Shown here: piece by piece, positions 2,687 through 5,476 of the stretch
How the letters are laid out: every line of letters begins with the position of its first letter
How positions within the stretch are numbered: position 1 is the first letter of the stretch
Virus record (IMG/VR): IMGVR_UViG_2778261448_000011
Span: 1-13,774 of that record
Reading direction: 5' to 3' (one strand)
Length of the DNA: 13,774 nucleotides
From: a virus
Taxonomy: Duplodnaviria > Heunggongvirae > Uroviricota > Caudoviricetes
Notes under the pieces: model-generated
Database searches by the model: none
Told to the model about the DNA's origin: nothing
The model's input: only the letters and a program-made list of their open reading frames with translations
Position numbers and translations under genes: made by a program

Positions 2687-2720
2687 CCGCGTTGTCGGCG
2701 GTGCAGATTGATAAAGAGCG
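2687..2720 (-). promoter_or_regulatory. nutR: boxA plus P22-type boxB
   Basis: On the minus strand, CGCTCTTTA (boxA) followed by CCGCCGACAACGCGG, a 5-bp stem with GACAA pentaloop, directly downstream of the cro stop. Confidence 0.6.
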
Positions 2721-2727
2721 GTGTTAC

Positions 2728-2928
2728 TTATGCAGTTGTTTTTTTGTTGCTTGGGAAGGGCTTTATTTCTTCCGCATAAACGCTTCCATCAGCGTTTATA
2801 GTTAAAAAAATATTTCGGCCTGCATGAATGGCCTTGTTGATCGCGCTTTGATATACGCCGAGATCTTTAGCCGTCTTGGTTTGACCAAAGCGCATTGCAT
2901 AATCTTTCAGGGTTATGCGTTGTTCCAT
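2728..2928 (-). CDS. cro: Cro repressor
   Basis: 66 aa [38 protein letters not shown]..., matching lambda Cro apart from about two substitutions (from memory). Confidence 0.95.
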
Positions 2929-2954
2929 ACAACCTCCTTAGTACATGCAATCAT

Positions 2955-3018
2955 TATCACCGCTAGAGGTAAAATAGTCAACACGCACGGTGTTAGATAT
3001 TTATCCCTTGCGGTGATA
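2955..3018. promoter_or_regulatory. OR operators OR1-OR2-OR3 with divergent pR (minus) and pRM (plus)
   Basis: OR1 tatcaccgctagaggta (2955-2971), OR2 caacacgcacggtgtta (2979-2995), OR3 tatcccttgcggtgata (3002-3018). pR -35 ttgact and -10 gataat on the minus strand; pRM -10 tagatt (3017-3022) gives a leaderless cI start at 3029. Confidence 0.9.
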
Positions 3019-3028
3019 GATTTAACGT

Positions 3029-3742
3029 ATGAGCGCAAAAAAGAAACCGTTAACACAAGAGCAGCTTGAGGACGCACGTCGCCTTAAAGCTATTTATGAA
3101 AAAAAGAAAAATGAACTTGGCTTATCTCAGGAATCTGTCGCAGACAAGATGGGGATGGGGCAGTCAGGTGTTGGAGCTTTATTTAATGGCGTCAATGCAT
3201 TAAATGCTTATAACGCTGCATTGCTTGCAAAAATTCTCAACGTTAGCGTTGAAGAATTTAGCCCTTCAATCGCCAGAGAAATCTACGAGATGTATGAAGC
3301 GGTTAGTATGCAACCATCACTCAGAAGTGAGTATGAGTACCCTGTTTTTTCTCATGTTCAGGCCGGGATGTTCTCGCCTGAGCTTAGAACCTTTACCAAA
3401 GGTGATGCGGAGAGATGGGTCAGCACAACCAAAAAAGCCAGTGATTCTGCATTCTGGCTTGAGGTTGAAGGCAACTCAATGACAGCTCCGGCAGGATCGA
3501 AACCAAGCTTTCCTGATGGAATGTTAATCTTGGTTGACCCTGAACAACCTGTTGATCCTGGTGATTTCTGTATCGCTAGACTTGGTGGTGATGAATTCAC
3601 ATTCAAAAAACTGATCAAAGATAGTGGGCAAGTGTTTTTGCAACCACTTAACCCGCAGTTTCCAATCATCCCATGCAATGAGAACTGCAACATTGTAGGC
3701 AAGGTTATCGCCAGTCAATGGTCTGAAGAGACGTTTGGGTGA
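3029..3742 (+). CDS. cI: CI repressor (lambda immunity type)
   Basis: 237 aa; N-terminal [13 protein letters not shown]-terminal LexA/S24-type autocleavage domain; near-identical to lambda cI with roughly a dozen substitutions, mostly C-terminal (from memory). Confidence 0.95.
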
Positions 3743-3959
3743 TGTGATAGAGATCATTATTCAATTCGATTGAGAAAAATCATCATAAAGTTTATATCCA
3801 TTTATTAGATTTTATGTGTATAAATAGTTAAAAATGTACGATGTAGAGATATTTGTGCTTAACATCAATTAATCATTGCTAAATCGTGCTTATTGTTCAG
3901 AAATTGCCCAAATTATATTGAAAATCTGTTGGCGAACACCTATATAAGGAGTATAGTTA

Positions 3960-4322
3960 GTGACCCAAAACGTATTGCCAATCAACAAGAGCTTGCATGA
4001 CCGAGCTGTTGATGAATTTAATCGTCTGCATGGAACAATGATTGGCGAGATTAGCGCAATGCTGAAAACAGCTAAAGTAGCGCCACTGGTGGATCTCCGT
4101 AAGAAAGATCCTACCTTCTTGAACGTTGTCGCAGAATTACGGACATTCAGAGACGTATGTAATGCTCTGATCCCGCACTTTCTTGTAGATAAGACCAGCG
4201 AAATCGCTGTCATTGATAAGTTACTTATACTGGCTAATGACCTGGCTCAAGCCATCGATGCTGACGATCCTGACGCATTGTGCGCAGCAATAGCAGCCCT
4301 TGATGTTGAGCCTTACATTTAA
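3960..4322 (+). CDS. Hypothetical protein (120 aa), first gene of a cassette in the rexAB slot
   Basis: GTG start at 3960 with RBS aggag (3947-3951); predicted helical, acidic C-terminus; no resemblance to RexA or RexB that I can see; preceded by a 217-bp AT-rich non-coding stretch. Confidence 0.6.
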   Translation: MTQNVLPINKSLHDRAVDEFNRLHGTMIGEISAMLKTAKVAPLVDLRKKDPTFLNVVAELRTFRDVCNALIPHFLVDKTSEIAVIDKLLILANDLAQAIDADDPDALCAAIAALDVEPYI

Positions 4323-4337
4323 ACGAGGGGAAAAAAA

Positions 4338-4466
4338 ATGACTAAAGCGTTTGACTATACTGCCGTTAGTAAGCTTTTGGCTGAAATGCGCGGATGTGTA
4401 GAGCGCGTTCAAAATCTACGCCGCGACTTTGAAGCTCACATCAATCATTCACAAAAAGCGGCTTGA
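4338..4466 (+). CDS. Hypothetical small protein (42 aa), second gene of the cassette
   Basis: ATG 4338 with RBS gagggg 8 nt upstream; MTKAFDYTAVSKLLAEMRGCVERVQNLRRDFEAHINHSQKAA; not in the ORF track (below size cutoff); followed by an intrinsic terminator. Confidence 0.4.
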   Translation: MTKAFDYTAVSKLLAEMRGCVERVQNLRRDFEAHINHSQKAA

Positions 4467-4493
4467 TACTTAAGTTAGATAACAGAACCAGAA

Positions 4494-4519
4494 CCCGGCC
4501 TCAGCGCCGGGTTTTCTTT
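4494..4519 (+). terminator. Rho-independent terminator closing the cI-cassette transcript (t-imm analogue)
   Basis: Stem cccggc (4494-4499), loop ctcagc, stem gccggg (4506-4511), then ttttcttt. Confidence 0.7.
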
Positions 4520-4673
4520 GCCTCACGATCGTCCACCTAAAAAACATAATCAATTGTATTTATTGAAAAATAAATAGATACAACTCACTAAACATCGCAA
4601 TTCTGATCTCTCGATCACCCACCCCAGCAACACACCCCGGCAAAAAATAAATCTATATAAAAAACATACAGAT

Positions 4674-4736
4674 AACCATCTGCGGTGATAAATTATCTCT
4701 GGCGGTGTTGACACACATACCACTAGCGGTGATAAT
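4674..4736. promoter_or_regulatory. OL operators OL3-OL2-OL1 and pL promoter (plus strand)
   Basis: OL3 aaccatctgcggtgata (4674-4690), OL2 tatctctggcggtgttg (4694-4710), OL1 taccactagcggtgata (4718-4734); pL -35 ttgaca (4708-4713), 17-bp spacer, -10 gataat (4731-4736). Confidence 0.9.
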
Positions 4737-4781
4737 AAACACATCAGCAGGAAGCTGGAAGCCAAACGGAACAGATTGGCA

Positions 4782-4816
4782 GGCTCTTTAACTTCGATGG
4801 GGCGCTGACAAAGCGC
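4782..4816 (+). promoter_or_regulatory. nutL: boxA plus P22-type boxB
   Basis: gGCTCTTTA (4782-4790) followed by GCGCTGACAAAGCGC (4802-4816), a 5-bp stem with GACAA loop, matching the P22 boxB-left sequence as I recall it. Confidence 0.7.
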
Positions 4817-4980
4817 AAACAGATACCAAACGAGATGGGTTTGGGATTTGATGAATGTGCAGGTCGATGCACTAACGCTTAGCGGTGAGCACCTGCCTTT
4901 GGGGCAGGATGGGTAGCCGCAATCAGGGGATCGACACCTGACATCAAATCACCAAAGCCATTTCGCATGGAGAAAAGAAA

Positions 4981-5100
4981 ATGCTGGAAATTATAACCAA
5001 CCCAATTCTCGGTGGGGCAATCATCACTTTCGCAATCGGCATCGGATTCACTATCTGGTCTGAAGTAGATGACTGGATGTGGGAGCGCAAAAACAAATAA
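4981..5100 (+). CDS. Putative small hydrophobic peptide (39 aa) in the pL leader upstream of N
   Basis: ATG 4981 with RBS ggag (4969-4972), 8 nt spacing; MLEIITNPILGGAIITFAIGIGFTIWSEVDDWMWERKNK has one predicted TM helix. Not in the ORF track (below size cutoff). Confidence 0.35.
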   Translation: MLEIITNPILGGAIITFAIGIGFTIWSEVDDWMWERKNK

Positions 5101-5140
5101 TCATCGACACACATTCATGTGTGTCTTCACGGAGGTCATC

Positions 5141-5476
5141 ATGGCGGTAATCGTGTACGGGAAATCAACATTCGCAGGAAATGCCAAAACTCGCCGTCAT
5201 GAGCGGCGCAGAAAGCTGGCTATCGAGCGTGATTCCATCTGCAACATCGTCGATTCGATCTTCGGCACAGACAGTGAGGAACCTGTTCAGGAAGCCCCGA
5301 GAAAACGTTTAAGCCTTTCTGAAAAAGCAATATCACTCGGAAGTCTTCGCTGCAAGAAGGCAGAAGAAGTCGAGCGTAAACAGAACCGTATTTACTACCG
5401 CAAGCCACGCAGTGAAATGGGTGTGACTTGTGTTGGTCGCCAGAAAATGAAATTAGGCAGCAAACCACTTATTTGA
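5141..5476 (+). CDS. N: Antitermination protein N with a P22-type arginine-rich motif
   Basis: GNAKTRRHERRRKLAIERD matches the P22 N (gp24) ARM; C-terminus GVTCVGRQKMKLGSKPLI resembles the lambda N C-terminus. Start chosen at ATG 5141 (RBS ggagg 5131-5135); the longer six-frame ORF from 5069 is an in-frame extension. Confidence 0.85.
   Translation: MAVIVYGKSTFAGNAKTRRHERRRKLAIERDSICNIVDSIFGTDSEEPVQEAPRKRLSLSEKAISLGSLRCKKAEEVERKQNRIYYRKPRSEMGVTCVGRQKMKLGSKPLI

Follow-up and report, generated by a model that had tools for sequence, protein, structure and literature searches.

In laboratory hybrids of phage lambda such as lambda imm434, imm21, and immP22, the immunity cassette and the N/nut elements of antitermination have been found to be exchangeable, with boundaries close to where the pL transcript begins and where cro ends. 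In the antiterminator N of lambda, the arginine-rich motif (ARM) at the N-terminus binds the boxB RNA, the central part binds NusA, and residues 73-107 constitute the RNA-polymerase-binding domain (PMC3526286). The corresponding protein of phage L, gp24, matches P22 gp24 with 96% identity along its first 75 residues and is unrelated beyond them; the two proteins are functionally interchangeable with identical boxB targets, and the specificity has been placed in the first 75 amino acids (PMC8022706). Here, we describe a DNA stretch of 13,774 nucleotides (positions 1 to 13,774 of the IMG/VR virus record IMGVR_UViG_2778261448_000011; the whole stretch is hereafter called the window), which, according to its open reading frames (ORFs) and their Pfam matches, constitutes the early region of a lambdoid Escherichia coli prophage and in which the + strand follows the leftward direction of pL. 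The window very probably represents a mosaic prophage, in which an immunity module of the lambda type (~2714-4755) is combined with an antitermination module of P22 specificity and of different ancestry.

An earlier note made from the letters of this DNA had already proposed such a combination. We aligned the window directly with lambda (NC_001416), P22 (AF217253), HK97, and the wild phages with lambda immunity (GenBank records EF120455-EF120461; Degnan et al. 2007), and the boxB and ARM sequences were compared against the actual P22 genome (AF217253). In these alignments, the ARM and the boxB sequences were indeed P22-like, and the junctions between the two types of DNA could be mapped.

Results

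The immunity region

The cI repressor gene (3029-3742, + strand) encodes a protein with 224 of 237 residues (94.5%) identical to lambda cI, and no change from lambda is seen in the helix-turn-helix, at the Ala-Gly site of cleavage, or at the catalytic Ser and Lys. Cro (2728-2928, - strand) also shares 64 of its 66 residues (97%) with lambda Cro, and its recognition region is unchanged. By alignment to lambda, the right operator OR was located as OR1 (2955-2971), OR2 (2979-2995), and OR3 (3002-3018) together with the promoters pR and pRM, and the left operator OL was located as OL3 (4674-4690), OL2 (4694-4710), and OL1 (4718-4734) together with pL (4674-4736 in total). OR2, OR3, OL2, and OL3 are identical to the lambda operators, and OR1 and OL1 are one base off each. 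A promoter scan detected a pR-like promoter (TTGACT-17-GATAAT) as well as pL (TTGACA-17-GATAAT, 4708-4736), the -10 element of the latter being GATAAT in the window versus GATACT in lambda. The window is thus equipped with the hallmarks of the lambda immunity group, namely the tripartite OR and OL with the 17-bp operators and the spacing of lambda, and the lambda DNA-recognition helices in both the repressor and Cro; the description of OR, OL, cro, and cI as lambda-like in the earlier note was hence correct. With these features, the cassette is expected to confer the immunity and superinfection specificity of lambda.

With regard to the operators, OR1 and OL1 have the same change relative to lambda, with A replacing G as the eighth base of the non-consensus half-site, and the OR1 variant of the window is also found in HK97 and CL707. 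At residue 2 in the N-terminal arm of cI, furthermore, Ala is present where lambda has Thr (T2A). Co-variation of T2A with the G-to-A change in OR1/OL1 was considered as a candidate and then dropped, because the prophage PEC240 pairs Ala2 with a lambda-type OR1.

The nut sites and N

When the window was searched with a degenerate boxB pattern (SSGCYGACAAMGCSS), exactly two matches were obtained, one at 2687-2701 on the - strand (CCGCCGACAACGCGG, nutR) and the other at 4802-4816 on the + strand (GCGCTGACAAAGCGC, nutL); in 200 shuffles, no match is expected. Each of the two boxB sequences is identical at 15 of 15 positions to its counterpart in P22, and each is preceded by a boxA that was recognized in the alignments, namely CGCTCTTTA at 2712-2720 (- strand) for nutR and GCTCTTTAA at 4783-4791 (+ strand; alignment with P22) for nutL. 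The core of the nutR boxA, CGCTCTT, is common to lambda, P22, HK97, and the window. On folding, both boxB sites gave the hairpin that was expected, with a GACAA loop, as the earlier note had claimed for nutL and nutR, and the would-be closing pair of the loop in nutR is C.C in the window and P22 alike. The flanks of the nut sites are P22-like at 86-88%, boxA and the spacing are also P22-like, and both of the boxB hairpins are perfectly conserved although the neighboring spacers vary in comparison with P22. Both early transcripts, therefore, have a boxB with the GACAA loop and an upstream boxA, which is the arrangement of P22-type antitermination.

The protein to act on these sites, N, is encoded at 5141-5476 (+ strand; 111 amino acids), and the ARM at its residues 13-31 (GNAKTRRHERRRKLAIERD) is identical to that of P22 gp24. 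N matched the Pfam family N_peptide (PF25694) with 89.5 bits against the cut-off of 27.9, and also phrog_271 (anti-termination protein N-like); the Pfam match covers residues 1-76 of N, corresponding to positions 1-76 of the 100 in the profile, and then stops. Indeed, 51 of the residues 1-76 (67%) are identical to P22 gp24, and the similarity to gp24 does not extend over the full length including the C-terminal tail. The tail of N (residues 77-111) instead has 20 of 34 residues identical to residues 73-107 of lambda N, compared with 4 of 11 identical to the tail of P22 gp24, to which it is essentially unrelated. Also, when N was compared with the lambda N chain of the structure 6gov, the best-aligned part was this C-terminus (~78-111; ERKQNRIYYRKPRSEMGVTCVGRQKMKLGSKPLI against ERKNQRTWYSKPGERGITCSGRQKIKGKSIPLI), and over its final 75 nucleotides the gene does not differ from N of HK544, which is of the lambda type. 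As judged from these alignments, N is a chimera of P22-type residues 1-76 and a lambda-type RNA-polymerase-binding tail from residue ~78. The earlier note had assigned to N the ARM of P22; this part stands, but the P22 type is limited to the first ~76 residues, and the last ~34 residues are of the lambda type.

Codons 1-42 of N differ from those of P22 by 15 synonymous and four conservative changes, and no amino acid is changed in codons 6-31; the presence of only synonymous changes in the latter codons implies purifying selection on the ARM. Together, the conserved ARM and the boxB sequences kept perfectly beside variable spacers bear the mark of selection to keep ARM and boxB matched, and N of the window is considered to have the boxB specificity of P22. 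A database search gave 369 homologues of N, and the aligned representatives include both types of tail on both N-terminal subtypes; since all four combinations exist, recombination near residue 76 has been recurrent. N of the window belongs to an E. coli subtype, which is 60-67% identical to the full-length forms in Salmonella, and exactly this N was found on several contigs.

It might be argued that the resemblance to P22 is functionally empty, either because the prophage is a decaying remnant or because the specificity of N was lost or altered in the chimera; such a view could point to the chimeric nature of N and to an extra ORF (described below) that separates N from its usual position at the leader. 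We consider this very improbable, given that the regulatory ORFs are all intact, that the boxB sequences and the ARM have been maintained as above, and that this architecture of N is widespread among the 369 homologues and precisely this N recurs on several contigs. Phage L, moreover, shows that an N chimera of this kind is functional (PMC8022706).

The recombination junctions

In local alignments, lambda-like DNA was found at 2714-3743 (92.4%) and 4492-4755 (89%), and P22-like DNA was found in blocks of ~50, 100, and 130 bp at 2684-2733 (88%), 4742-4844 (86%), and 5138-5266 (84%), respectively. The window has CATCAGCAGGA where the pL transcript starts, in common with lambda, P22, and HK97; the DNA of the window is of the lambda type upstream of this element and of the P22 type downstream, so that the left junction falls in the interval of 4742-4755 where the blocks of the lambda and P22 types overlap. 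On the right side, the similarity is to lambda and HK97 as far as the boxA core CGCTCTT, the cro stop codon included, and from there to P22 through boxB, giving an interval of 2712-2733 for the right junction. Matches in the database split at the same positions, with the breaks on the left side at 4740-4755. On both sides, the junction is thus found in the DNA that separates the operators from nut, as the earlier note had proposed. Given that the nucleotide identity is only 84-92%, neither lambda nor P22 is a recent or direct parent, and the modules were drawn from the lambdoid gene pool but not from lambda and P22 themselves.

Directly outside the cassette, the DNA is not of the lambda type: cII is HK97-like, the O-like gene is HK97/P22-like, and the DnaB-type helicase gene, the gene following N, and recT are also non-lambda. 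As the simplest history, we infer a single double crossover that put the immunity cassette of ~2 kb (~2714-4755) into a non-lambda backbone, and this is favored by the fact that both junctions bound one contiguous lambda-like block. Alternatively, a lambda-like phage could have gained the P22-type nutR and, independently, the P22-type nutL and N without any swap of the cassette. Some lambda backbone is in fact present in the window (98% identity at int/xis and, over 164 bp, at 5862-6025); nonetheless, two imports would require at least two coordinated events, both of which must have succeeded to keep N and nut matched, and would leave unexplained why all the DNA directly outside the cassette is non-lambda and why the junctions flank a single contiguous block. 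We hence regard two separate imports as improbable and the transfer of one cassette as the better description of the window.

Because the junctions sit in short sequences shared among lambdoid phages, where mis-assembly could occur, a chimera generated by joining the reads of two prophages also has to be considered. Among 5,426 complete E. coli genomes, nevertheless, 22 were found to have the left junction and 16 the right junction, with 97-99% identity, and the whole region from nutR to N is present as a single locus in at least 15 genomes. The recurrence of the same junctions in 16-22 independently completed genomes refutes an artifact of assembly or sequencing, the probability of which we take to be negligible. 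The hosts of the junction-bearing genomes include pigs, humans, chickens, and wild animals. When 50,697 deposited phage records were searched, neither junction was found. The recurrence of the junctions points to a modest lineage of prophages.

The pL leader and a small open reading frame

The pL leader of 403 nucleotides (4748-5150) folds with a z-score of -3.8 against shuffled controls and contains a long, irregular hairpin at ~4831-4966 (+ strand) between nutL and the first ribosome-binding site. The flanks forming the base of this hairpin are kept in lambda, P22, HK97, and HK544, and its interior is variable; its position corresponds to that of the RNase III-processed hairpin in the N leader of lambda. 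A search of Rfam at a permissive threshold gave only matches at the level of chance (isrF, 17 bits; RsmY, 18 bits) and no known RNA family over the nut sites and the leader, and no tRNA was detected in the window with ARAGORN. In a related prophage of E. coli AR_0058 (NZ_CP021689.1), a "tRNA-OTHER" is annotated by PGAP in the leader between pL and N (L007 2929-3009), just upstream of the small ORF described next; nearly all of this feature lies upstream of where the homology to the window begins, with an overlap of 9 bp.

Between the leader hairpin and N, a small ORF at 4981-5100 (+ strand) encodes a hydrophobic protein of 39 amino acids (MLEIITNPILGGAIITFAIGIGFTIWSEVDDWMWERKNK). This ORF uses the ribosome-binding site right after the leader hairpin, which is the site of N in P22 and in the prophage PEC240, and N starts 40 nucleotides after the ORF with its own GGAGG. 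The small ORF matches phrog_7482, is kept in copies that are 85% identical at the nucleotide level, and was located ~40 nucleotides upstream of an N gene of the PF25694 family in all eight of the contexts inspected, with at least four types of repressor nearby. In the complete genomes inspected, it has been left unannotated by PGAP. The small ORF gave no match in a tblastn search against the phage collection and no match to the defense systems of PADLOC, and no compensatory changes were seen when the hairpin that separates it from N was inspected for them. As a tentative proposal, which we ourselves hold to be rather unlikely, the small ORF might function as the first gene of the pL operon, and its role would be either that of a small membrane protein or that of an upstream ORF through which N translation is coupled to or uncoupled from the control by nutL and the leader hairpin. 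If that were the case, it would constitute an undescribed layer of N regulation.

The cargo slot and the flanking modules

In the slot between cI and the terminator Timm (3744-4491), rexA and rexB of lambda are replaced by two cargo ORFs with no similarity to lambda, one at 3960-4322 (120 amino acids) and the other at 4338-4466 (42 amino acids), both on the + strand. These ORFs match phrog_13858 and phrog_12503, respectively, both of which are of unknown function, and neither ORF gave a match in Pfam or to the defense systems of PADLOC. In sister prophages with the same junctions, the cargo of this slot is ParA, a Clp-fold serine protease, P63C, DUF1828, or hypothetical proteins, and the annotations of HK544 and CL707, two of the wild phages with lambda immunity, show the same variability at the slot. 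The rexA/rexB slot thus appears to be a hot spot for the exchange of cargo. The slot is followed by a Timm-like terminator hairpin at 4492-4519 (+ strand) within the lambda-like block of 4492-4755, and the homologous site is annotated as Timm in HK544 and CL707.

On the right arm, beyond nutR, all genes being on the - strand, the window contains a cII homologue (2325-2621; Pfam Phage_CII), a gene for an O-like replication initiator (1080-2027; Pfam Phage_rep_O), and a gene for a DnaB-type replicative helicase (1-1083; Pfam DnaB and DnaB_C), which runs off the window. The cII protein is of the HK97 type, with 83 of 98 residues identical to HK97 cII and 38% identity to lambda cII; the cII gene itself is a hybrid, in which the last 59 nucleotides (2329-2387) are 93% identical to lambda and most of the length is HK97-like. 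In the O-like protein, 159 of 272 residues are identical to HK97 O, and the region of 634-1454, comprising the 5' part of the helicase gene and the 3' part of the O-like gene, has 71% nucleotide identity to the gene 18/12 region of P22. Inside the O-like gene (1470-1612), there is also a periodic repeat of 12 nucleotides with the core CATGTGCGG in ~8 copies, which encodes a His/Ala-rich segment of the protein; these repeats are candidates for the iterons of a replication origin.

On the left arm, N is followed by genes with unknown products and then by a gene for a RecT-family recombinase (7200-8111, + strand; Pfam RecT), a gene of the Gp157 family, and Ea22-like and DUF551 genes. No nucleotide similarity to lambda bet/exo was detected in the recT region of the window. 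An O-like protein with a DnaB-type helicase, and recT in place of bet/exo, had been named in the earlier note, as had xis and int of the lambda type, and all of these assignments agree with the Pfam matches and the identities obtained here. Indeed, xis (12508-12726) and int (12704-13774), both on the + strand, encode proteins identical to those of lambda at 71 of 72 and 353 of 356 residues, respectively, and the end of the window containing them (12225-13774; 1,550 bp) is 98.3% identical to lambda, indicating site-specific recombination of the lambda type. The isolated stretch of 164 bp at 5862-6025, which corresponds with 98% identity to lambda DNA from between ea10 and ral (33925-34087), is flanked by DNA unrelated to lambda, and a terminator-like hairpin (5855-5872) overlaps its left edge.

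Discussion

We have described a prophage region in which two regulatory modules can be distinguished. The first comprises cro, OR1-3, cI, the cargo slot, Timm, OL1-3, and pL and would set the repression and superinfection immunity with the specificity of lambda. The second comprises nutR just to the right of cro, nutL located ~40-75 nucleotides into the pL transcript, and N with its P22-type first ~76 residues. Taking the individual steps from well-studied homologues, we suppose that cI would repress pR and pL in the lysogen by binding to OR and OL, and that pL and pR would fire upon the RecA-stimulated cleavage of cI, for which the cleavage site and the catalytic residues are intact. In the nascent transcripts, the boxA RNA would then be bound by NusB/NusE and the GACAA-loop boxB by the ARM of N, with the lambda-type tail of N contacting the polymerase; the polymerase thus modified would read through the early terminators into the recT/int genes on one side and the cII/O/DnaB genes on the other. 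Because the crossovers are located in short sequences common to lambdoid phages, namely the initial ~11 nucleotides transcribed from pL and, by the cro stop codon, the boxA core, the modules could be exchanged without loss of function, and crossovers at these two sites leave the ARM-boxB pair matched on both arms. The intragenic junction near residue 76 of N would likewise join the P22-type part for binding of RNA and NusA to the lambda-type tail for binding of RNA polymerase.

Several points weigh against this description. The small ORF displaces N by ~160 nucleotides from the leader hairpin, and the control of N expression may hence differ from that in lambda and P22. Also, the single swap of the cassette is an argument of parsimony, and sequential events would leave the same pattern. 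Furthermore, the 13 substitutions in cI, T2A included, together with the G-to-A change in OR1/OL1 make a shifted or broadened specificity of the repressor possible.

The window is a clean natural case of lambdoid modules that recombine at very short conserved sequences, with the cognate protein-RNA and protein-DNA pairs being kept. It is textbook lambdoid mosaicism already present in public genomes and no new kind of wiring. The practical value is in annotation; public genomes that carry the nut sites, the chimera of N, and the small upstream ORF have them either unannotated or called hypothetical.

In comparison with known systems, the immunity region of lambda has the same gene order, and the Timm-like terminator is in the window too; the nucleotide sequences nonetheless diverge by ~8%, and the window differs from lambda in the ORFs of the rex slot, in nutL and nutR, and in the ARM of N. 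P22, in turn, has the identical ARM in gene 24 and the identical pair of boxB sequences in nutL and nutR, but its own immunity (c2/cro) is unrelated to that of the window, and the window has a lambda-type tail of N and the extra ORF of 39 amino acids. Phage L, compared here via its published description, has in gp24 a break between the N-terminus of ~75 amino acids and an unrelated tail at the same place as N of the window.

As to natural phages with lambda-type immunity, HK97 has a lambda-type immunity region (cI, 226/237; Cro, 65/66) with an OR identical to that of the window, and also shares the 3' end of cro; this immunity is joined to a non-lambda N and to boxB hairpins with the GACAA loop. 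N of HK97, however, has a different ARM (GNSRSRRRERLKAKALANG) and a tail of the P22 type, unlike N of the window, and HK97 has no obvious boxA in nutL. The phages mEp234 and HK106 have a lambda-type immunity region like that of HK97 and pair it with a non-lambda N. Among the wild phages, HK544, HK542, HK244, and CL707 have lambda-type immunity with variable cargo in the rex slot; HK544 and CL707 are nevertheless equipped with N and nut of the lambda type, and their N genes are 98% identical to that of the window only at the 3' end. Finally, the junctions of the window are at the same positions as the boundaries in lambda imm434, imm21, and immP22. While these hybrids were constructed or selected in a lambda backbone, the window represents a natural prophage with the reverse combination, i.e., lambda immunity with non-lambda N/nut, in a non-lambda backbone. 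The window thus adds one more combination of immunity and antitermination to those of HK97, the wild lambda-immunity phages, and phage L, and leaves the understanding of the system unchanged.

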